Position numbers and translations under genes: made by a program. DNA of 64,000 nucleotides, from contig JABZHQ010000001.1 in NCBI GenBank assembly GCA_015258765.1, positions 26,820 to 90,819 of the forward strand, in the 5' to 3' direction. This document shows, piece after piece, positions 33,460-49,063 of this stretch; position 1 is the stretch's first letter, and every line of letters starts with the position of its first letter. The notes beneath the pieces were generated by a model. It saw only the letters and a list, made by a program, of their open reading frames with translations. It did not search any database and was not told where the DNA came from. The stretch is from Atopobium sp. Its GTDB lineage: Bacteria; Actinomycetota; Coriobacteriia; Coriobacteriales; Atopobiaceae.

Positions 33460-34665
33460 ATGCACATGCCTTCTGCAAAACCAGAACATCCAACAGGCAA
33501 CGTGTACCTGGACTTCGCCGCAGCGACACCTATGGATCCACGTGTAGTTGATGCAATGATTCCGTACTTCACCGAGAAGTTCTATAACCCATCGGCACCA
33601 TATGCGCTGTCTCGCCAGGTTCGTGACGAGGTGGAACGTGCACGTGCTGTCTTGGCACACGCTATCGGCGCTCGTCCAGGAAACGTGGTGCTCACGGCAG
33701 GTGCTACAGAGGCAAACAACTTGGCGTTTGCTACGGTCTCGGAAGACGCGCACGTTATCGTTGACGCCATTGAACATGAGAGCGTTCTAGCGTGCGCAGG
33801 GATTTTCTCGCACAAGACACTTCGCGTAGAAGCAGACGGTCGCGTGGATCCAGAGCGGGTTGCAAAAGCGCTCAAACCAGAGACCGAGCTGGTTTCCATT
33901 GAACTTGCAAACGGCGAGATTGGCACCATCCAGCCTATCCGCGAGATTTCGCAGGTGCTTGCCAAGGAGCGCTCACGCAGACTTGCGGCAGGGGAGTCTC
34001 GTCCGCTGCACTTGCACGTAGACGCTTCTCAGGCAGCAGCATACTTGAGCGTAAACGTGTCGTCTCTGGGCGTAGACATGCTGACGCTTTCTGCGGCAAA
34101 GCTTTCTGGCCCCAAGCAGGTAGGTCTTCTGTGGGCTTCTGACGATGTGCGCTTAAAGCCGTTGGTACTCGGCGGCGGGCAAGAGGGCGGCGTTCGTTCA
34201 GGTACAGAGAACGTCGCGGGCGTCATTGGCTTTGCGTGTGCTTTAGCGCTTGCTGATGAGACTCGCACTGACGAGGCAAAACGGGTTTCTCGCCTTAGAG
34301 ATCAGTTACAAGAGCTGCTTTGCACAGAGTTTCCGCAGATGATTGTCTCGGGGCCAAAGAACGCCAAGCTAAGGCTTCCCAATTTGCTGCATGTTTCTTT
34401 CCCAGGACTTGAGGCTCGTCGTCTGGTCATTCTGCTGGAGCGCCTGGGCGTGTCAGTGGGAACAGGCTCTGCGTGCGCCGCATCAAAAATGCAAATATCT
34501 CACGTGCTCGAGGCAATTGGAGCACCGCGAGAAGTAGCTGCGGGAAGCCTCAGGTTGACGCTTGGAAGAACTACCACAGAAGACGACATCTTGTACGCAG
34601 CTTGGGCAATCGCTGAGGCTGTTAAGCAGGAGTCCGCTCGTGTAGGAGTGACATGGGAGAATTAG
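33460..34665 (+). CDS. Cysteine desulfurase (class V aminotransferase, IscS/NifS-like)
   Basis: 401 aa; PLP-fold motifs, 'LSAAKLSGPKQVG' (PLP Lys region), 'GTGSACAA' active-site Cys loop. Confidence 0.85.
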   Translation: MHMPSAKPEHPTGNVYLDFAAATPMDPRVVDAMIPYFTEKFYNPSAPYALSRQVRDEVERARAVLAHAIGARPGNVVLTAGATEANNLAFATVSEDAHVIVDAIEHESVLACAGIFSHKTLRVEADGRVDPERVAKALKPETELVSIELANGEIGTIQPIREISQVLAKERSRRLAAGESRPLHLHVDASQAAAYLSVNVSSLGVDMLTLSAAKLSGPKQVGLLWASDDVRLKPLVLGGGQEGGVRSGTENVAGVIGFACALALADETRTDEAKRVSRLRDQLQELLCTEFPQMIVSGPKNAKLRLPNLLHVSFPGLEARRLVILLERLGVSVGTGSACAASKMQISHVLEAIGAPREVAAGSLRLTLGRTTTEDDILYAAWAIAEAVKQESARVGVTWEN

Positions 34666-35738
34666 TTTACCTTGGCATGAGTGGTGGCGTTGATTCAGCG
34701 CTGTCCGCGGCCTTGCTTCTTGAGGCGGGCTACAACGTCAAGGCTATCTATATGCGTAACTGGTCAAAGGACCTGCCAGGCTTTAAGTGTCCCTGGGCAG
34801 ATGACTTGGCTGATGCTGAGCGCGTCTGCGTAACGCTGGGCATTGATTTGGACGTGTGGGACTGTGAGGCCGAGTATAAAGCTACCGTTGTGGATTACCT
34901 GCTTGATGCCTATGAGCACGGCCGTACGCCTAATCCAGACGTTATGTGCAACCAGACGGTCAAGTTTGGCACCTTTGCAGAACGTGCTTTTGCAGAGGGT
35001 GCCGATTTTGTTGCAACAGGTCACTATGCACAGAACGTTCCGGGCACCAAAAAACTTTTGCGTGCCGCAGATGCTCACAAGGATCAGACGTATTTCCTAT
35101 GGCGTGTACCAGGTCATTTGTTTGAACGCACGCTTTTTCCTATTGGACACATTGCCACCAAGGCAGAGGTTAGGGCTCTGTGTGCAGAGCGAGGTCTGGG
35201 CATAGAAACTAAGCCAGACTCCGACGGCATTTGCTTCATTGGCCCCGTTGGCTTGCGCACATTTTTGCTAGATACCTTCCAGAAAAAGCAGGGCGACGTC
35301 ATTGAGTGGGAAACAGGCAAGGTCCTTGGTACCCATGACGGAGCATTCCTCTTTACCGTTGGCCAAAGAAAAGGCCTGAACATCGGTGGAGGTCCTGCTC
35401 GCTATGTAGTAGCAACCGACACGCTTAAGAATGTGGTCTACGTTACCTCTGACCTTAACTGCTCTGCGTTGTGGACTCGTCGTATGGAGCTCTCGGACAT
35501 GCACTGGATTTCTGGAGAACCTGCAGCTAACGGTAGGTATGTGGTCAGAACTCGTCACACAGGCGCACTGGTTCCCGTAACGTTTACGCTCACAGATAAT
35601 CAATGTGGATTTATTGAATTTGATCAGCCGGTAAAAACTGTTGCAGCAGGTCAATCAGCGGTTTTGTACGATGGCCAGGAAGTTTGTGGCGGTGGCATTA
35701 TTGAGGCCGACAAGGGTATACTTGAGCGGTTCATGTAA
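34653..35738 (+). CDS. mnmA: tRNA-specific 2-thiouridylase MnmA
   Basis: 361 aa; PP-loop 'LGMSGGVDSALSAALL'; 'TGHYAQ' and catalytic Cys 'DSDGICFIG' motifs; overlaps upstream cysteine desulfurase stop. Confidence 0.88.
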   Translation: MGELVYLGMSGGVDSALSAALLLEAGYNVKAIYMRNWSKDLPGFKCPWADDLADAERVCVTLGIDLDVWDCEAEYKATVVDYLLDAYEHGRTPNPDVMCNQTVKFGTFAERAFAEGADFVATGHYAQNVPGTKKLLRAADAHKDQTYFLWRVPGHLFERTLFPIGHIATKAEVRALCAERGLGIETKPDSDGICFIGPVGLRTFLLDTFQKKQGDVIEWETGKVLGTHDGAFLFTVGQRKGLNIGGGPARYVVATDTLKNVVYVTSDLNCSALWTRRMELSDMHWISGEPAANGRYVVRTRHTGALVPVTFTLTDNQCGFIEFDQPVKTVAAGQSAVLYDGQEVCGGGIIEADKGILERFM

Positions 35739-38494: not shown

Positions 38495-39058
38495 ATGTCT
38501 CTTATTGGTAAGGAAATTGGTGATTTTAAGGTAAACGCATTCCACAACGGTGACATCACTGAGGTAAGCAAGGAGTCCACACTGGGCAAGTGGAGCCTGT
38601 TCTTCTTCTATCCAGCTGACTTCACCTTTGTCTGCCCAACCGAGCTTGAGGATCTTGCAAACAACTACGACAAGTTCCAGGCTGCTGGTGCAGAGGTTTA
38701 CTCTGTTTCCTGCGACACCGAGTTTGTCCACAAGGCATGGCATGAGGAGTCCGAGCGTATTTCTAAGGTAACCTACCCAATGCTCGCAGACCCAGCTCAC
38801 GTTCTTGCAAGGAACTTTGAGGTTCTTATCGAGGATGCTGGCCTTGCTGAGCGCGGTGCCTTCATTGTTGACCCAGAGGGTGTCATTCAGGTTGAGCTTG
38901 TTACCGCTGGTGGTATTGGTCGTAACGCTGAGGAGCTTCTCCGCCTTCTCCAGGCTGCACAGTTTGTTGCAGAGCACGGTGACCAGGTTTGCCCAGCTAA
39001 GTGGCAGCCAGGCGCTGAGACCCTGAAGCCAAGTCTTGACCTTGTTGGTCAGCTCTAA
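38495..39058 (+). CDS. ahpC: Peroxiredoxin AhpC (typical 2-Cys)
   Basis: 187 aa; 'FFFYPADFTFVCPTEL' peroxidatic Cys motif and C-terminal resolving Cys 'GDQVCPAKW'. Confidence 0.92.
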   Translation: MSLIGKEIGDFKVNAFHNGDITEVSKESTLGKWSLFFFYPADFTFVCPTELEDLANNYDKFQAAGAEVYSVSCDTEFVHKAWHEESERISKVTYPMLADPAHVLARNFEVLIEDAGLAERGAFIVDPEGVIQVELVTAGGIGRNAEELLRLLQAAQFVAEHGDQVCPAKWQPGAETLKPSLDLVGQL

Positions 39059-39074
39059 GATTTAGGAGCTTACA

Positions 39075-40718
39075 ATGACCGACGTCAAAGACCTCTACGA
39101 CGCGGTGATTATCGGCGGTGGGCCAGCTGGGCTCACCGCCGCCCTCTATCTGGCCCGCGCTCGCTACCGTGTTCTAGTTGTCGAGAAGGACCATTTTGGC
39201 GGACAGATCACTATTACTAATGAGGTCGTTAATTACCCGGGAGTTTTCTCTACTAGTGGCTCTGAACTCTCAGAAACCATGCGTAAGCAGGCTGAGGCCT
39301 TTGGTGCAGAGTTTTTGCTGGCAGAAGTTACTGACTTGGACATGTCCGGAGATGTTAAGGTAGTTCACACCACCAAAGGTGAGCGTCCCTGCCTCTCCGT
39401 TCTTCTCGCCACAGGAGCACATCCTCGCCATATTGGATTTGTGGGAGAAGAGGACTATCAGGGCCACGGAGTTGCTTACTGCGCCACCTGCGACGGCGAA
39501 TTCTTTACCGGCAAGGAAGTCTTTGTTATTGGTGGAGGCTTTGCAGCCGCAGAAGAAAGCGTATTTCTAACTAAGTACGCAAAGCACGTCACGGTTCTTG
39601 TGCGCGAGGAAGCATTTACCTGCGCCCCTGCGTCGTCCGAGGCTGCTCGCACTAATCCAAATATTACGGTTCTGTACAACACACAGGTTGAATCCGTTGC
39701 CGGAGATTCCGCACTTAGGTCTATTACGTACAAGAACCTCAAGACGGGCGAGAAGACCACGTTTGCTCCAGAAGATGGAGATTCTATTGGTGTCTTTGTC
39801 TTCGCGGGCTATGCGCCAGAGACTGACCTGGTAAAAGAGCTAGCTCAGACTGATGATTACGGTTATCTGATTACCAACGAGCATCAAGAAACAACCTGTG
39901 AGGGTCTCTTTGGTGCAGGCGACGTATGTCAGAAGCCACTACGTCAGGTTGCAACGGCTATTGGTCAGGCGGCAACTACTGCCACCGAGATGGAACGCTA
40001 CATCAAGCGTGCCCAGGAAAAGACCAGCCTTGTTCCGCAGATGAACGTCACGCGCATCTCGTCCAAGAAGGAGGCTCCTGAGGCTCCAGCGGCCAAGACC
40101 ACCTCTGACTCCGGAGAGCTTTTTACCGACGACATGAAGGCGCAGCTTAACGCTGTCTTTGAGCGCATGGCACGTCCGCTTGTGCTTCAGCTTGAGCTTG
40201 ATCAAAGACCTGTTTCTGAGGAGCTTGTAGCTTACATGGAAGAACTTTCTTCTATGACCGACAAGCTGAGCGTTCAAACAGTCTCAGACACGGGCGAGAA
40301 GAACCTTCCTGTTGTTCGTGTGTGCGCACAGGATGGTGCGCCAACAGGTCTTGCGTTCCACGGTGTTCCCGGCGGCCATGAGTTCACTTCGTTTGTTCTT
40401 GGACTCTACAACGCCGCAGGTCCTGGTCAACCTATTAGTGACGAGGATAAGGCATCTATTGCCGCTATCGAGTCAAAGACGCATCTCCAGGTCTTGGTAG
40501 GACTTTCTTGTACCATGTGCCCAGACGTTGTTGTAGCTGCTCAGCGCATTGCTGCGGATAATCCCCAGGTCACCTGCGATGTCTACGACATCAACCACTT
40601 CAAGGAGCTCAAAGACACCTACGATGTCATGAGCGTTCCATGCTTGGTTATCAACGACGGCCAGAAGGTTGACTTCGGCAAGAAGAATCTCTCTCAGATT
40701 CTGTCGCTGATTCCTTAA
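39075..40718 (+). CDS. ahpF: Alkyl hydroperoxide reductase subunit F-like flavoprotein with permuted domain order (TrxR-like domain N-terminal, AhpF N-terminal-type double-Trx domain C-terminal)
   Basis: 547 aa; 'VIIGGGPAGLTAALYLARA' FAD motif and 'CATCDG' redox centre in first 330 aa; C-terminal 'GHEFTSFVLGL', 'LSCTMCPDVVVAAQ', 'MSVPCLVING' match AhpF NTD motifs. Confidence 0.8.
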   Translation: MTDVKDLYDAVIIGGGPAGLTAALYLARARYRVLVVEKDHFGGQITITNEVVNYPGVFSTSGSELSETMRKQAEAFGAEFLLAEVTDLDMSGDVKVVHTTKGERPCLSVLLATGAHPRHIGFVGEEDYQGHGVAYCATCDGEFFTGKEVFVIGGGFAAAEESVFLTKYAKHVTVLVREEAFTCAPASSEAARTNPNITVLYNTQVESVAGDSALRSITYKNLKTGEKTTFAPEDGDSIGVFVFAGYAPETDLVKELAQTDDYGYLITNEHQETTCEGLFGAGDVCQKPLRQVATAIGQAATTATEMERYIKRAQEKTSLVPQMNVTRISSKKEAPEAPAAKTTSDSGELFTDDMKAQLNAVFERMARPLVLQLELDQRPVSEELVAYMEELSSMTDKLSVQTVSDTGEKNLPVVRVCAQDGAPTGLAFHGVPGGHEFTSFVLGLYNAAGPGQPISDEDKASIAAIESKTHLQVLVGLSCTMCPDVVVAAQRIAADNPQVTCDVYDINHFKELKDTYDVMSVPCLVINDGQKVDFGKKNLSQILSLIP

Positions 40719-40759
40719 AATTCATTCGCGTCAAGGAGAGGGGCGACGCTCATGAATAT

Positions 40760-40795
40760 GCCGAGAAGATCAACGGTCTTCTCGGCATTTTTTTG
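40760..40795 (+). terminator. Rho-independent terminator after ahpF
   Basis: GCCGAGAAGA-TCAACGG-TCTTCTCGGC followed by ATTTTTTT. Confidence 0.75.
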
Positions 40796-40847: not shown

Positions 40848-42701
40848 CTACAGAGCTTTTTGCTGGTAGAGGCCTGCATCAGTAAAGCCCTGAGTGCGAT
40901 AGTAAGCGCGCGTTCCAATTGAGCTGATGACGTTAAGGCTGGTATAACCCGCCTCAGCCGCGATAGAGGAGGCTTTGGCAAGAAGTTTTTGGCCCAAGCC
41001 CTGGTGTTGAGCAGACATTCCTTCTGAGCCAAGCGAAAGCGCCTGTCCGTACACGTGGAGCTCTCTGATCATGGCCTGACCTGGCTGTACCAGCAGCTCA
41101 TTGGCGGTAACATCACATAATCCAGCGGTCAGTTTGTCCCAGTGGGGAAGTGAAAGCCTACAGAAACCTGCGATTTTATTGTCAGCAGTTACCCACTGCA
41201 GGAAGTGCTCGTCACTGACCGCGGTAGTGTAGGCAAAGTCTTGGAGGGTAAGCTCTGCGGCGCGTACCTGCTGCTGGTTAATCTCTCTAAAGCGAATCTC
41301 CTGCACGCGACGTGCAACGTCTTTGGCGGCAAGTTCTTGCTCCACCATCTGGCGGAGGTTGGTGTGTTTGTTTCCCACCAGAATGTCGGTGGCACTAATG
41401 TCTCTGATCATACGAGAAATGCGCACGTATGGAGGCGTTGCAAGCACGTCTTGAACAAGCACGTCTACCAGCTCATCTTTGGCGTATGGCTGCCATGCAC
41501 CCTCACGGTATTTCTGGACCAATTGCGTTCCAGATACCAGTGCACAGGGGTAGAGCTTAATCTCATCAGGGAGAAATCCTGGATCCGTGACAAACGTTTT
41601 AAAGTCCTGTTTGTCCGCCTCAGGTGTTGCGCCCAACAGGTTAACCATCAGGTGAGAGTGGATTTTAAATCCGTACAAGCGAATCAGCGAGAACGCTCGT
41701 TTAATCTGAGCAACGCTCATCTGACGCTGGTTTGCGTCAAGGATTTCTTGGCGTGTGCTCTGAATGCCAATTTGAATTTTGGTGCACCCAAGCTGCCTAA
41801 ACATGCGTAGGTTATCCGGCGTAATAGTGTCAGGTCTGGTTTCTATTACAAGGCCAACCACGCGAGCAGCAGCTGTTTCATTAACGTGTTGTTGTTCTAC
41901 CAGCTCATCATAGGTACTCTGCATCTGTGACCATGCGCTTTGGTGAGGCTGGCTGGTGTCGTAGAGCTTATGAAAAGCCTGGTTATACGTGGCAGTGTCA
42001 TCAAAGACTGCCGCCTGCTGTTCAGCAACAAAAGAAGAAAGTGCTTCTTCAGAGTTCTGCAAGCCAAACGAGGTATACCAATTCAGGCGCTCCTGGATGT
42101 GACTAGGAGAGTTGGGCCACTCATTAAGCGCACGGAAAAGCTCCTTGATAAACCAGTACTGGTAGCCCTCTGGATAATCGCTCCAGGTACCACCAAGCAC
42201 AATAAGCTCAACTTTGTCGGTCGAGTGTCCCATTTGATGGAGTGCCTGAAGGCGGGCTGCAACCTGCACGTATGGATCAAAAAACGTAAGTTCAGCACGC
42301 TGGCAGGCAGGCTCGTTAGCAAGATAGCTTTTAGGCATACGTAGATCGCACGGGCAATAGATGCAATTGCTCGAACAGGTATGCGGCCTGGTAATCACGG
42401 TAATGGTAGCCACGCCAGAAGCGGTGCGACGAGGCTTCATACGTACAGAGCGGATAAACCTTTCTTCCAGCTCAGGCGTTACATTCCACGATTGCCACAG
42501 CTCATCATTGTTCTGCTTGACCTGCAAAAAATAGGGGAGAATTGCTCGTTTAGGAATGAGTTTCTCGCGCTCTGTACTGTGGGCGCTAGAGTCAATTCCG
42601 CTGTTGTGCGAGTTAATGAGCATCTCAAGCTGATGCGTATCAAGAGCACCTTGTGAGCCATCTCTGAGCTGCTTCAATATGTCCAAAATGAGTTCATCCA
42701 T
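40848..42701 (-). CDS. Elp3-family protein: radical SAM domain + C-terminal GNAT acetyltransferase domain (bacterial Elongator-protein-3 homolog)
   Basis: radical-SAM 'CSSNCIYCPCD' (Cx3Cx2C) cluster motif, TIM-barrel region, C-terminal GNAT 'ELHVYGQALSLG...HQGLGQKLLAKAS'; start placed at second Met (MDELILDIL); track ORF extends to 42794. Confidence 0.75.
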   Translation of the reverse strand: MDELILDILKQLRDGSQGALDTHQLEMLINSHNSGIDSSAHSTEREKLIPKRAILPYFLQVKQNNDELWQSWNVTPELEERFIRSVRMKPRRTASGVATITVITRPHTCSSNCIYCPCDLRMPKSYLANEPACQRAELTFFDPYVQVAARLQALHQMGHSTDKVELIVLGGTWSDYPEGYQYWFIKELFRALNEWPNSPSHIQERLNWYTSFGLQNSEEALSSFVAEQQAAVFDDTATYNQAFHKLYDTSQPHQSAWSQMQSTYDELVEQQHVNETAAARVVGLVIETRPDTITPDNLRMFRQLGCTKIQIGIQSTRQEILDANQRQMSVAQIKRAFSLIRLYGFKIHSHLMVNLLGATPEADKQDFKTFVTDPGFLPDEIKLYPCALVSGTQLVQKYREGAWQPYAKDELVDVLVQDVLATPPYVRISRMIRDISATDILVGNKHTNLRQMVEQELAAKDVARRVQEIRFREINQQQVRAAELTLQDFAYTTAVSDEHFLQWVTADNKIAGFCRLSLPHWDKLTAGLCDVTANELLVQPGQAMIRELHVYGQALSLGSEGMSAQHQGLGQKLLAKASSIAAEAGYTSLNVISSIGTRAYYRTQGFTDAGLYQQKAL

Positions 42702-42796
42702 ACAAACAGTATAGGCAATAAGGCGAGCTTCTGACCTTTGGGAGCAAGGCGATGACGTAAAATCTCTGTATGGAAACTTCTTCAAACAGAACATAT

Positions 42797-43579
42797 ATGC
42801 AATCTATCAGCGCATCTACCGCTGAGCAGCTGAGCTACGTAACTTCTGAGTTTTACTCTCAGCAGACGCAGAGTTTCTCGGCCACACGACAGATGCCTTG
42901 GCAGGGGTGGCAGCAGTGCCTAGATGCCATGCCTCAGCTTTTATCTGGCGAGAAACCCTCTGTACTTGATGTGGGTTGCGGCAACCTGCGCTTTGCTCGC
43001 TTTTTATGCGATGAGGCGGGGATTGTTCCGGCAAAGTATTTTGCTGTAGATAATTGCAAGCCACTGGTAGAGAGTGGTGAGGCAGACACTCATGTCTCTG
43101 AGCTGGCATTTATTGAATTAGATGTGATAACAAGCCTGCTTGACGGCACGCTTTCTTCGCGTCTTACTGTTCCGGCCTGTGATTTAGTGGTTGCGTTTGG
43201 CTTTTTGCATCATGTGCCAGGTGCACAAAAGAGAATCCAGCTTCTGCGCGCGTTGTTAAGGAAAGCCAAACCTGGCGGATTTGTGTGCGTTTCTTTCTGG
43301 CAGTTTATGAATAGCCAAAAACTTGCTGCCAAGGCTCAAGAAACCACTGCTCAAGGTCTGCGTGCGCTGGGCATAGATGCCTCAGAACTTGAGGAGCATG
43401 ACTATCTGATTGGTTGGCAAGATAAGGCAAATACCTGGCGCTATTGTCATCACTTCTCGCAAAAGGAACTGGATGAGCTTCTTGCAAGTCTTGGTTCTGA
43501 CGTGCATGCTTGTGCGCAGTTTAGTGCGGACGGTAAAGAAAACAATCTTAATCGGTATGTGATTTTGCAACGTGTATAA
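42797..43579 (+). CDS. Class I SAM-dependent methyltransferase
   Basis: motif I 'VLDVGCGNLRFARF', acidic motif II 'FAVDN', motif 'DLVVAFGFLHH'; divergent from Elp3-like gene; start ATG 42797 or 42770. Confidence 0.75.
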   Translation: MQSISASTAEQLSYVTSEFYSQQTQSFSATRQMPWQGWQQCLDAMPQLLSGEKPSVLDVGCGNLRFARFLCDEAGIVPAKYFAVDNCKPLVESGEADTHVSELAFIELDVITSLLDGTLSSRLTVPACDLVVAFGFLHHVPGAQKRIQLLRALLRKAKPGGFVCVSFWQFMNSQKLAAKAQETTAQGLRALGIDASELEEHDYLIGWQDKANTWRYCHHFSQKELDELLASLGSDVHACAQFSADGKENNLNRYVILQRV

Positions 43580-44072: not shown

Positions 44073-44084
44073 CTGCATTCAGTA

Positions 44085-44452
44085 GGCAAAGTGGACGTAT
44101 AAGCCGGGTTCTGTCGCGGACAACCATTTATCTACTACCAGCATTGCTACTGGTCTCTAGCGCGCAACCCGAGCGCAGTGCGGGCCACACCATAGCGCTC
44201 CTATTTGCGTTTGCTCCGGATGGGGTTTACCAAGCCACGCTGTTGCCAGCATGCTGGTAGTCTCTTACACTACCGTTTCAGCTTTTCTCTTTACGCGAAT
44301 GCGCAGGTGAGAGTCTTCTTTTCTGCGGCACTTTCCGTCGGGTCACCCCGCCTGGCCGTTAGCCAGCATCCTGCCCTGTGGAGCCCGGACTTTCCTCATA
44401 GCACTCTTCCAATTAGCTGGATGGGCACTCCGCGGTTGTCTGGTCCACTTTG
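44085..44452 (-). ncRNA. rnpB: RNase P RNA (bacterial type A), rnpB
   Basis: minus strand contains universally conserved P4 segments 'GAGGAAAGTCCGGGCTCCACAGGGCA' and 'ACAGAACCCGGCTTA', and P1 pairing GCAAAGTGGAC / GTCCACTTTGC at the ends; TACAAT -10-like box upstream. Confidence 0.85.
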
Positions 44453-46159: not shown

Positions 46160-47629
46160 TTACTTGCGGTTACGGCCACCAAGGGAGTAGCCAAGGTTCT
46201 CCCAGAAATCAATCTGGACATCTTCGCCCTCGTCCCAAACCTTGAGCAGGTCCTCTGGAACGTACTGACGACGAACATCAGCCTCGCCGCCGTAGAGGCG
46301 GAACCAGTCTGCGCTCATGATGAGGTAGCCGTCCTTACCGGAGTCCTTACCCCAGCTGTTCTCAATGCGCCACTGCTTAGCCTTACCGTCCTTATCAAGC
46401 TCAACGCCCTGGAAGGTCATTGCGTGGGTAAGGGAAGTCTCATAGTTCTCAATCATTGAGGCACGATCCATGTCAAAATCAACGCCAAAGAGGCCGTTGT
46501 AATCCATGGTGTCGGTTGAGAGAACGTAGTTGAAGTCCTCATTGTGGCGAGGGAACTCCTGCATAACGTCGCAGGCCATGCAGACAGGGTTGCCGTCCTT
46601 CAAAGAAGCAATGGTAGCTGCCTCAAGAACCTCTGGCTCAACGTTTAAGAAGCGAGTCTTAATGCCGCCTAAAACGGTATCGATGAAGGTTGGGTGATAC
46701 ACCTTGCCGTAAGGATACTTCTTGCTTGGAACAGAAATGAGCTGGACAAAGCCACGAGGATCAACGCCACAATAGCGCTCAGCAAACTCAAGAGGAGTGA
46801 TGCCAAAGTCGCGAAGAATCTGGGTACCTTCCTCGTCCTTCTCGCCGTCCTTCTTGTCCTTGTTGTCAGAAGCCTTGCTTGGCTCAACAGGAGAAAGCTT
46901 TGCCTTATCTACCTGTGCGTTTTTGCCAACCTTGCACTCAAAGTCAAAGGTCAGAGGTGGCTCGCCAAGGCAGACGGAAAGGATCTGGTGGAAGCCCTTG
47001 AGCTGCTCCTGCTTAAGCGCACGAAGCTCGTCTTGAGACTTACCAGCTGCGTATGCTGCGCGAAGCTCGCCAGCACTCTTTCTGAACAGGCGGTCAATGC
47101 GCTCATCCATCTGTGTAGAGTTCTTGGAGCATGCAGTCTCTGGCATGGCATCCTTAGGAACCAGGCCATACTTCTCAACCAAGCTCATAGCGAATGAGTA
47201 GTAGCCGCCATCGCCAATACCCTCGGTCAGAAGCGTGTTGACAACACGAGAATCGGTTGGCTGGTTAGCGGTCTGAATGATGTACTCAAGTGCAGAGTTT
47301 GCCTTCTCAAGCTTGTCGTAGAACATGCCGTATGCCTGGCTGAACTCAAAGGTATCAACGTCAAGCTTTTTGATTGCCTCCTGGCGAAGCACGTTGAAAG
47401 AAGAGAACATCCAGCAGCGACCGCTCTGACGCTGGTTGGTGACGTCGCCCGTCTTTGCAACAGCAACACCGTAGGTGTCAGCGTAGGTGCGCATGGTGGT
47501 GATGTCGCGAGCAGCTGCGGAAACACCCATAGAGGTTACGGAATTGCGAGCAACGCGATTAGCACGGTCTGCACTAAATGCAGCGGTTTCCTCGTTTGCC
47601 CACTGTGGATTTACGGTCTGATCAGCCAT
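46160..47629 (-). CDS. pepC: Aminopeptidase C (bleomycin hydrolase-like, peptidase C1B)
   Basis: 489 aa; 'NQRQSGRCWMFSSFN' active-site Cys motif, C-terminal His/Asn region. Confidence 0.88.
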   Translation of the reverse strand: MADQTVNPQWANEETAAFSADRANRVARNSVTSMGVSAAARDITTMRTYADTYGVAVAKTGDVTNQRQSGRCWMFSSFNVLRQEAIKKLDVDTFEFSQAYGMFYDKLEKANSALEYIIQTANQPTDSRVVNTLLTEGIGDGGYYSFAMSLVEKYGLVPKDAMPETACSKNSTQMDERIDRLFRKSAGELRAAYAAGKSQDELRALKQEQLKGFHQILSVCLGEPPLTFDFECKVGKNAQVDKAKLSPVEPSKASDNKDKKDGEKDEEGTQILRDFGITPLEFAERYCGVDPRGFVQLISVPSKKYPYGKVYHPTFIDTVLGGIKTRFLNVEPEVLEAATIASLKDGNPVCMACDVMQEFPRHNEDFNYVLSTDTMDYNGLFGVDFDMDRASMIENYETSLTHAMTFQGVELDKDGKAKQWRIENSWGKDSGKDGYLIMSADWFRLYGGEADVRRQYVPEDLLKVWDEGEDVQIDFWENLGYSLGGRNRK

Positions 47630-47704: not shown

Positions 47705-49063
47705 TTAGCGAAGCGTTGCAAGAGAGCCCATTGGGTCCCATGGCTCGAGGACGGTTGCTTCCTCGGTCTCAAAGGTCTTGAGCTGCTCAGGAGTGAGGTA
47801 CTTCTTGTCAACAACAATCTGGTAGACGTACTCGTCAAACCAAGGGTCAGAAATGGTGTCAAAGCCATCGCGACCGTGGTCTTTACCCCAGCTGTTCTCA
47901 ACCTTCCAGAGGGTAGTGTTGCCTTCTGCGTCAAAGTTAACGCCCTCAAGAACCATTGCGTGAGTCATCAGAGACTCACCGTAGTCAAGGCGCTCAGCAC
48001 GGTCAAGTGCGCCCTCAACAGGGAAGCCAAAGAGGCCGTCAACGTCAAGCGCACGGGTGTCCATGATGCCCTCTTCGCGAAGGTAGGACTGAGCAACATC
48101 GCAACCAAACCAGACAGGCAGATTGTCCTTGAGCTGAGCCACTGCGAGGCGCTTGAGCTCAGGAATCTCAAGGTTGAGGTAACGAACGCCGCCACCCTCA
48201 ACAACGTTACCCAAGCGCGAAACGGTATAGGTGTGGTTGAAAGGCTTATCTGCGGTTGGTGCAGAAATGATTGAGATGTAATCATCAAGATTCATGTCAA
48301 CAGTCTCAGCGAAGAACTCCTGAGGAGTAAAAGTGCCAGAAAGGGCGAGGTTGTCGTCCTTATCGCGCAGGCGTGCCTCAAAAGATACAGGAGGCTGACC
48401 CAAGCAAGTTACCAGCAGCGTGTAGACGTCCTCCATCATCTCTTTCTTCATCTCGCGCAGAGACTCAAGGGATTCACCAGCTGTTGCGGTCTCACGAAGA
48501 CGCTTTGCAGCACTACGAAGATAGCGGGTAAGGTACGCGTCCATCTCGTGGGTGTTGCAAGAGTTAGCAGTCTCTGGCATAGCGCTCTTTGGAACTACAC
48601 CATACTTCTTTACAAGGCTCTTAAACATATCCCACTGGCCACCGTCGCCAATTGGATCGGTGAGCAGGAAGGATACAAGACGGCCATTCAGAGGCTCATC
48701 AAGGGTGTCCAAAATGTTCTCAAGGAACCAGTTGGACTTCTCCATCTTGTCCCAGAACAGTGGGTATGCCTGAGAAAGCTCAAAGGTAGATAGGTTGTAT
48801 TTCTTGATGATGCGATATCTAAACGTATTGAGTGATGCAAACATCCAACAACGACCAGAACGCTTCTGATTAGTACGGTCACCCTGCTTTACCTCAACAT
48901 CAAAGGTAAGAGGATTGAGGGCAACACCTTCTGGTACACGAGCTGCTTTTCTAACACCAGCGCTGGTAGCAGCATTTTTAGCTACTGTGTGAGCGCGGTC
49001 GGACTCAAAGTTCTTCTGAGCCGCTGCAATGTCGTCAAAGGAAATGCTTTTCATCTGATCCAT
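47705..49063 (-). CDS. pepC: Aminopeptidase C paralog (peptidase C1B)
   Basis: 452 aa; 'NQKRSGRCWMFASLN' active-site motif; ~40-50% identical to downstream copy by eye. Confidence 0.88.
   Translation of the reverse strand: MDQMKSISFDDIAAAQKNFESDRAHTVAKNAATSAGVRKAARVPEGVALNPLTFDVEVKQGDRTNQKRSGRCWMFASLNTFRYRIIKKYNLSTFELSQAYPLFWDKMEKSNWFLENILDTLDEPLNGRLVSFLLTDPIGDGGQWDMFKSLVKKYGVVPKSAMPETANSCNTHEMDAYLTRYLRSAAKRLRETATAGESLESLREMKKEMMEDVYTLLVTCLGQPPVSFEARLRDKDDNLALSGTFTPQEFFAETVDMNLDDYISIISAPTADKPFNHTYTVSRLGNVVEGGGVRYLNLEIPELKRLAVAQLKDNLPVWFGCDVAQSYLREEGIMDTRALDVDGLFGFPVEGALDRAERLDYGESLMTHAMVLEGVNFDAEGNTTLWKVENSWGKDHGRDGFDTISDPWFDEYVYQIVVDKKYLTPEQLKTFETEEATVLEPWDPMGSLATLR

Follow-up and report, generated by a model that had tools for sequence, protein, structure and literature searches.

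C5 modification of the tRNA wobble uridine (U34) is near-universal. MnmE and MnmG have been reported absent only in Actinobacteria (PMC6063277), and a tRNA survey of Mycobacterium tuberculosis stated that the enzyme responsible for the C5 group on 2-thiouridine (s2U) is not known there (PMC10531406). How Actinobacteria modify U34 C5 is an acknowledged gap. In a 64,000-nucleotide stretch of Atopobium sp. DNA (the window), the first-pass annotation had picked out a gene for an Elp3-like radical S-adenosylmethionine (SAM) enzyme lying divergent to a gene for a class-I SAM-dependent methyltransferase, and had proposed a two-step wobble-uridine modification system. Our analysis suggests that the two genes probably encode a compact pathway of the archaeal and eukaryotic type, with 5-carboxymethyluridine (cm5U) predicted as the first product and 5-methoxycarbonylmethyluridine (mcm5U) as the second. 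The pair is laid out as follows:

40848..42701, minus strand: Elp3 coding sequence, 617 amino acids (aa), with a radical-SAM domain fused to a GNAT/KAT domain.
42770..43579, plus strand: Trm9-like class-I SAM methyltransferase, 269 aa, with an alternative start at 42797 (Met10).
42702..42769, no strand: divergent intergenic region of 68 bp, or 95 bp if the methyltransferase starts at 42797.

At its longest start, the Elp3 open reading frame (ORF) covers 40848-42794 on the minus strand and encodes 648 aa. An internal methionine at 42701 (MDELIL...) is the start favoured by relatives and gives the 617-aa protein, to whose first residue the alignment of relatives from 50 Coriobacteriia loci extends. 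For the methyltransferase, the ATG at 42770 matches the 269-aa database homologues, and Met10 at 42797 fits the N-termini of most family members better. The shared divergent region had earlier been put at about 95 bp. The divergence itself is clear, and this length is correct only for a start at 42797, being 68 bp otherwise. A spacing of 68-69 nt is also found in loci of the L. parvula/L. rimae group (L001-L018 and L045). The region presumably holds both promoters. A simple sigma-70 scan of the 68-bp spacer gave no consensus match, and Rfam identified no element in it, the nearest RNA gene being that for RNase P RNA at 44084-44451.

Elp3 was assigned by models, structures and catalytic residues. 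NCBIfam model TIGR01211 (ELP3) matched at 404.5 bits against a cut-off of 350, with residues 87-648 of the 648-aa form aligned to model positions 27-522, and Pfam identified Radical_SAM, Radical_SAM_C and C-terminal GNAT (Acetyltransf_1) domains. These results bear out the architecture first ascribed to the 617-648-aa protein, namely a Cx3Cx2C radical-SAM domain with a GNAT domain at the C-terminus. The first-pass annotation had also suggested a comparison with PDB entry 5L7J, and this structure, Dehalococcoides mccartyi Elp3 (DmcElp3), was indeed the closest of the solved relatives (E = 6e-85), with the Elp3 proteins of archaea and eukaryotes coming next. Conservation was determined from a MAFFT alignment of 52 sequences, consisting of 50 Coriobacteriia Elp3, the window protein and DmcElp3. 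The features of interest are:

42354..42377, minus strand: radical-SAM [4Fe-4S] motif CSSNCIYC (Cx3Cx2C), from the translation; the three cysteines are invariant in 52/52 sequences.
40884..41225, minus strand: GNAT/KAT acetyl-CoA domain (Pfam Acetyltransf_1), which includes IRELHVYG, QHQGLGQ and AYYR.
42438..42701, minus strand: N-terminal extension of 88 aa, absent from DmcElp3 and net acidic (10 K+R versus 14 D+E).
41904..42122, minus strand: lineage-specific insertion of 73 aa in the radical-SAM domain; PDB Elp3 matches align in two stretches around it.

In DmcElp3, K77, K193, E386 and Y441 have been described as conserved key residues of the acetyl-CoA pocket (PMC6367351). Their equivalents in window Elp3, K163, K346, E547 and Y601 (617-aa numbering), were invariant in 52/52 sequences, as were the equivalent of Dmc H388 and the glycines of the GNAT GxG motif. 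The insertion was 65-127 aa long in 49 of 51 Coriobacteriia-type sequences (window included), and 25 and 28 aa long in the other two; DmcElp3 has 6 aa only at this position. At the positions of the Zn-cysteine triad, window Elp3 has V, E and F and so lacks the triad, and a cysteine was found at any one of them in just 0 to 1 of the 51 Coriobacteriia-type proteins. Eukaryotic Elp3 also lacks the triad, so this feature does not define the family. Judged by sequence, membership of the Elp3 family is secure, and cm5U34-forming activity is predicted from that membership. Bacterial Elp3 has been called rare (PMC6367351) and, elsewhere, present in numerous bacteria (PMC13315578).

The methyltransferase was matched in Pfam by generic class-I models alone (Methyltransf_23, 11, 12 and 25). 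No curated NCBIfam model named it, and the sole match was UbiG (TIGR01983), at 18.4 bits against a cut-off of 102.95. With UbiG so far below its cut-off and no other NCBIfam match, identity as UbiE/UbiG or as an rRNA methyltransferase, which the first-pass annotation had named as one finding that would speak against its proposal, was rejected. The protein is 90% identical to one from Lancefieldella (formerly Atopobium) parvula, and the window comes from a human-associated, L. parvula-like actinobacterium. At E ≤ 1e-30 the family of the protein numbers 820 cluster representatives (clustering at 50% identity). An alignment of 54 diverse members (A1, 37-63% identity) contained 22 invariant positions. 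Comparison of the A1 profile with 177,635 PDB sequences placed Yarrowia Trm9 (YlTrm9, 5cm2_Z) first, with E = 3.5e-8, while the runner-up had E = 1.4e-3. HHalign of A1 against YlTrm9, using the 5cm2_Z sequence as recovered from PDB alignments, spanned 171 columns, with the TR motif at one end and the RYYH motif at the other, at a probability of 97.8% and E = 8e-13. The family profile was needed for this result, as a single-sequence phmmer search of PDB produced nothing significant, with Trm9 at E = 0.19. A renewed homologue search with A1 returned nearly all the same close Lancefieldella variants. JGI/IMG labels two family members "tRNA (uracil-5-)-methyltransferase TRM9"; the NCBI labels are generic class-I or UbiG. 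The AlphaFold2 model made with A1 had a predicted local distance difference test (pLDDT) score of 95.5 and showed the alternating strands and helices typical of class-I methyltransferases. Trm9 is the closest solved relative by profile, in agreement with the idea that the partner is a Trm9 analogue. This putative assignment draws on the sequence profiles, the conserved active site and the gene context; the ranking of folds does not contribute to it.

Active-site residues were compared with those of yeast Trm9 (ScTrm9), for which eight mutants are non-functional in vivo, as indicated by zymocin resistance: R29, D72, H116, W145, W168, R241, Y243 and N271 (PMC4678810). The comparison used A1 and a joint MAFFT alignment with YlTrm9 and the partner methyltransferases of Dehalococcoidia described below (A4). 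Seven of the eight essential residues, R29, D72, H116, W145, W168, R241 and N271, fell in invariant columns, with R40, D94, H147/H148, W177, W216, R224 and N261 as their window equivalents. In the window they are located as follows:

42884..42889, plus strand: Thr39-Arg40 of the FSxTR motif, by HHalign, invariant in A1 and A4; Arg40 corresponds to ScTrm9 R29.
42965..42985, plus strand: SAM-binding motif I, LDVGCGN, aligned with Trm9 DIGCGNG.
43208..43213, plus strand: His147-His148, corresponding to ScTrm9 H115/H116 (H116 essential), by HHalign and MAFFT; invariant.
43298..43300, plus strand: Trp177, aligned by HHalign and MAFFT with ScTrm9 W145, an essential residue for which stacking on U34 has been proposed.
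43415..43417, plus strand: Trp216, corresponding to ScTrm9 W168 (essential), by HHalign and MAFFT.
43439..43450, plus strand: Arg224-Tyr-Cys226-His, corresponding to the Trm9 RYYH motif; R224 equals R241, and Cys226 stands in place of Y243.
43550..43552, plus strand: Asn261, probably equivalent to ScTrm9 N271, for which recognition of the uracil ring has been proposed; invariant together with YlTrm9 N222.

ScTrm9 R29 has been proposed to position the cm5U carboxylate, and the H115A mutant has a milder effect and stays zymocin-sensitive (PMC4678810). D94, the counterpart of the SAM-binding residue D72, was invariant in the methyltransferase family. The equivalence of N261 comes from MAFFT (A4) alone, the site being outside the HHalign range. 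Tyr18 at the N-terminus of Trm9 has been modelled as contacting the cm5U carboxylate (PMC4678810). In the window family, Y29 is invariant and precedes R40 by 11 residues, the spacing of Y29 to R40 in YlTrm9; this region is missing from the crystal construct and lies outside the tool alignments.

Linkage of the two genes was examined by scanning one genome per GTDB species with A1, which produced at least 590 confirmed matches; the counts that follow refer to the best 80. Nearly all of these loci were from Coriobacteriia (Atopobiaceae, Eggerthellaceae and Coriobacteriaceae), with a few bins labelled otherwise, and the top genome loci were from Atopobium/Lancefieldella. The presence of Elp3 was scored by tblastn with window Elp3 in flanks of up to 10 kb. 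Elp3 was found within 10 kb of the methyltransferase in 71 of the 80 loci, being adjacent (≤421 nt) in 63 and 1.4-4.9 kb away in 8. Each of five loci without Elp3 had an incomplete flank; the other four are considered below. Across the linked loci, identity to the window proteins fell as low as 36% for the methyltransferase and about 45% for Elp3. Orientation was divergent in most of the 80 loci. Co-directional genes, Elp3 and then methyltransferase, were found in L037, L051, L068 and L070, with a stop/start overlap of 4 nt in L051, and L069 had the reverse order. Clustering of neighbouring ORFs (64 loci, ORFs ≥130 aa) revealed no other family near as constant, the next being present in 22/64 and 16/64 loci. 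An ABC transporter, a HAD-like protein and a cysteine desulfurase were rejected as core members, as each was present in ≤22/64 loci.

Six loci with a Coriobacteriia-type pair came from bins labelled Methanomethylophilaceae, Oscillibacter, Butyrivibrio, Prevotella, Bacteroidaceae or Acutalibacteraceae (L028, L024, L029, L042, L053 and L075). These labels most likely reflect mis-binning and not true occurrence outside Coriobacteriia.

The same pairing was found in a second phylum. Upstream of the DmcElp3 gene (P0298, D. mccartyi CP019867), at a distance of 43 bp, lies a divergent gene for a 224-aa Methyltransf_11 protein (L081:5283-5957). The layout was the same in two other DmcElp3-type loci (L082:5252-5926 and L085:760-1401), one on a 1-Mb genome contig and one on a metagenome contig; it was different in one further locus, and one was uninformative. 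HHalign matched the Dehalococcoidia partner methyltransferases to Trm9 with 99.0% probability (E = 3e-18) and to the window methyltransferase family with 97.1% (E = 6.7e-11). A metagenome scan with the Dehalococcoidia partner (L086-L165) showed a divergent Elp3 in 59 of the 63 loci with enough upstream sequence, within 500 nt in 51. Together with the D. mccartyi pairing, this suggests that a module of Elp3 and a Trm9-like methyltransferase recurs in Elp3-bearing bacteria. The two genes, whose co-occurrence the first-pass annotation had proposed as a check, are thus kept together in 71 of the 80 Coriobacteriia loci even where their orientation or order has changed, and independently in Dehalococcoidia. 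Conservation of the pairing in two bacterial phyla shows that it did not arise by chance. Searchable full text, mostly without subscription papers, yielded no paper on a Trm9-like partner of DmcElp3 or on any bacterial Trm9 partner.

In the pathway that we propose, Elp3 alone, through its radical-SAM and acetyl-CoA-binding GNAT domains, would put a carboxymethyl group on C5 of U34 to give cm5U. This step is suggested by membership of the Elp3 family and by the published biochemistry of DmcElp3 and MinElp3. The methyltransferase, a candidate distant bacterial homologue of Trm9, would then use SAM to methyl-esterify cm5U to mcm5U, a step to which homology, active-site conservation and gene linkage point. 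By homology to the Trm9 model, positioning of the carboxylate would fall to Arg40, His148 and Arg224, and holding of the uracil to Trp177 and Asn261. What was computed is the identity of both genes at family level, the conservation of catalytic residues and the linkage in two phyla; from these we infer the substrates, the products and the order of the steps. Thiolation genes are also present in the window:

33460..35738, plus strand: NifS/IscS-like cysteine desulfurase (33460-34665) overlapping MnmA (34653-35738); context, outside the pair.

MnmA, a tRNA 2-thiouridine(34) synthase, matched NCBIfam NF001138 at 372.9 bits against a cut-off of 284. The top NCBIfam models for the desulfurase were cysteine desulfurases, with NifS (TIGR03402) at 323 bits, below its cut-off of 530.75. 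As the organism encodes both proteins, it can thiolate U34. Glu, Gln and Lys tRNAs would then plausibly end up with 5-methoxycarbonylmethyl-2-thiouridine (mcm5s2U), the 2-thio group being added by MnmA and the desulfurase. The two genes lie 5 kb from Elp3, and MnmA was rejected as a member of the module because its proximity is kept in close relatives and one distant locus (L069) only. None of the tRNA genes within the 64-kb window has U34.

Several observations weigh against this pathway, and some of them favour other explanations. The searchable full text turned up no paper describing bacterial cm5U or mcm5U. Eukaryotic and archaeal Trm9 need Trm112; among the clustered ORFs of ≥130 aa there was no small conserved neighbour, a set from which a 60-aa protein would escape, and no search for Trm112 was made. 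The C-terminal profile (A2, 65 positions) did not retrieve Trm9 from PDB, although this test is insensitive and by itself speaks neither for nor against Trm9. Since the 80 loci, with one exception, belong to a single class (79/80), some of the synteny is due to common descent. The essential Tyr243 of Trm9 is replaced in the family by a near-invariant cysteine (Cys226, RYCH), at a position where the yeast Y243A mutant keeps about 10% activity (PMC4678810). This family-specific change would fit a methyltransferase that works with Elp3 on U34 and yields an end product different from that of Trm9, acting on another atom of the Elp3-derived side chain, on the 2-thiolated form only, or on the way to a longer bacterial C5-substituted (xm5U) derivative. 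Such an enzyme might also account for the invariant residues not shared with Trm9 (F28, W44, G46, W47, D254 and G255), for the 60-80 or so residues by which the protein exceeds the Trm9 core, in N-terminal helices and a helical insert at 183-200, and for the cysteine desulfurase that lies between the two genes in Senegalimassilia-type loci. However, the equivalents of R29, H116, R241, W145 and N271 are all invariant, which argues for the same substrate geometry and chemistry, and a different end product seems unlikely to us.

A separation of the two functions is suggested by the fold searches and by a few loci. In a Foldseek search with the AlphaFold2 model, Trm9 ranked 18th among many class-I methyltransferases, and small-molecule methyltransferases scored like Trm9, so these searches do not discriminate. 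Four Coriobacteriia loci have no Elp3 despite full 10-kb flanks and an intact methyltransferase, and the NCBI annotation is generic or UbiG. The methyltransferase could on this account be a small-molecule or protein methyltransferase functionally unrelated to Elp3, adjacent to it through shared descent and a shared promoter region. Against this, the two genes stay together where protein identity is as low as 36-50% and where their orientation or order has changed, with overlapping stop and start codons in one case; two phyla have a Trm9-like partner next to Elp3, no other neighbour reaches a similar degree of conservation, and Trm9-specific residues outside the SAM-binding motifs are invariant. 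The UbiG score, 18 bits against a cut-off of 103, points the same way, and we consider an unrelated function quite improbable. The insertion of 73 aa and the N-terminal extension, acidic and not basic, set window Elp3 apart from the bacterial and archaeal enzymes studied so far, and would be compatible with a target other than tRNA, Elp3 being a protein or metabolite acetyltransferase or a radical enzyme and the methyltransferase following that substrate. Yet all acetyl-CoA-pocket and Fe-S residues that were checked are invariant and the partner is a homologue of an enzyme that methylates cm5U in tRNA, so that a non-tRNA target is very improbable indeed. A two-step route through cm5U to mcm5U remains the explanation that we prefer.

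The four loci with full flanks and no Elp3 (L035, L040, L064 and L076) belong to four species, comprising a Senegalimassilia sp. and Eggerthella sp. CAG:298-like genomes. All invariant methyltransferase residues are kept in them, and neither Elp3 nor a remnant of it was present within 10 kb on either side. The Senegalimassilia-type desulfurase lies directly upstream of the methyltransferase, between it and Elp3, in L020-L022, L027 and L042, and such a gene is also found in L029 and L035. It is distinct from the window NifS, to which it is ~33% identical, and could supply sulfur for Fe-S cluster assembly or U34 thiolation.

The proposed pathway can be set beside known systems, of which the archaeal one is similar in gene content. 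The Elp3 and Trm9 genes cluster in Sulfolobus solfataricus, and Haloferax volcanii makes mcm5U in a manner dependent on Trm9 and Trm112 (PMC6144793). As in the window, archaeal Elp3 stands alone, without Elp1, Elp2 and Elp4-6, is clustered with a Trm9-type methyltransferase, and is predicted to lead to mcm5U34. In contrast to the archaeal case, the window host is bacterial and its methyltransferase is linked to Trm9 by profile methods only; the methyltransferase is about 60-80 residues longer than the Trm9 core, and window Elp3 lacks the Zn-cysteine triad and carries the 73-aa insertion. For the eukaryotic system of Elongator (Elp1-6) with Trm9-Trm112 or ALKBH8-TRMT112, the same two chemistries are predicted and seven of eight Trm9 residues are kept, whereas the window has no accessory Elongator subunits and no AlkB or RRM fusion, and has Cys in place of Tyr243. 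Thiolation would proceed via bacterial MnmA and a cysteine desulfurase in the window, as opposed to Urm1/Ncs6 in eukaryotes, and a eukaryote-like mcm5s2U is a possible end product if MnmA supplies the 2-thio group.

DmcElp3 (PDB 5L7J, 5L7L and 6IA6) has the same catalytic residues as window Elp3 and a divergent Trm9-like methyltransferase immediately upstream. Unlike window Elp3, it is 459 aa long, has neither the N-terminal extension nor the insertion, and has a Zn-binding cysteine triad, and its 224-aa partner is nearer to canonical Trm9, with RYYR/RYYH kept. Like the window pair, MnmL (YtqA) and MnmM (YtqB) of Bacillus subtilis are an Elp3-related radical-SAM protein and a class-I SAM methyltransferase, and U34 side chains are the target of both. 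MnmL, however, has no GNAT domain, and MnmL/MnmM trims 5-carboxymethylaminomethyl (cmnm5) to 5-methylaminomethyl (mnm5) downstream of MnmE/MnmG and does not build the 5-carboxymethyl group. Membership of the window pair in MnmL/MnmM was rejected, the window protein scoring 70.4 bits on TIGR01212 against a cut-off of 180, and MnmM was not recognized among the 27 PDB matches of the methyltransferase profile. MnmE-MnmG shares with the pair the target position and a presumed decoding role, while the enzymes and the chemistry are unrelated: MnmE-MnmG uses a GTPase, flavin adenine dinucleotide (FAD), folate, and glycine or ammonium. Its reported absence in Actinobacteria agrees with the first-pass view that the pathway stands apart from standard bacterial enzymes.

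Both protein families and the logic of the pathway are already known from archaea and eukaryotes; the bacterial pairing in two phyla appears to be undescribed in the searchable literature. Whether a two-gene module of Elp3 and a Trm9-like enzyme produces the archaeal and eukaryotic wobble nucleoside mcm5U or mcm5s2U in Coriobacteriia and, independently, in Dehalococcoidia seems to us evenly poised. If it does, no earlier mcm5U pathway from bacteria is on record as far as the searchable literature shows, and the pair would make up for the loss of MnmE and MnmG in Actinomycetota. One whole actinobacterial class, which includes such common inhabitants of the human gut and mouth as Eggerthella, Collinsella, Adlercreutzia, Slackia and Lancefieldella, would decode with eukaryote-type mcm5(s2)U. 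The long-studied DmcElp3 would gain its missing downstream partner. The module might use a Trm9 that works without Trm112, and would provide a minimal system, Elongator-free and possibly Trm112-free, for in vitro study of the mcm5U pathway. A family now annotated as generic class-I methyltransferase or UbiG would be corrected. Eukaryotic anticodon nucleases, zymocin among them, recognize tRNA by its mcm5s2U, and bacterial mcm5s2U could therefore also matter for toxin susceptibility.

Long members of the methyltransferase family were checked for fusions. The Ogt-type DNA-binding-domain fusion of cluster P0215 was the sole one found, and there was no fusion to Elp3 or Trm112. The 13 members of this cluster, most of them 426-445 aa long, have a C-terminal O6-methylguanine-DNA-methyltransferase DNA-binding domain (PF01035), which loosely recalls ALKBH8, where Trm9 is joined to a domain of DNA-repair type.

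Other features of the neighbourhood are of more local interest. The RNase P RNA gene is of bacterial class A (44084-44451, minus strand, 287.7 bits). It is encoded on the strand opposite to the methyltransferase, ~500 nt beyond the 3′ end of the latter, and is probably a coincidental neighbour. Further along are two tandem paralogous ORFs on the minus strand, 46160-47629 (489 aa) and 47705-49063 (452 aa). Neither matched an NCBIfam model at E ≤ 1e-5; by eye, they resemble aminopeptidase C. On the other side of the pair, genes for AhpC and an AhpF homologue (38495-40718, plus strand) converge on the 3′ end of Elp3. Between the stop codons of the AhpF homologue and Elp3 there is a 14-bp GC-rich hairpin with a T-run (40758-40788), which may act as a terminator in both directions.

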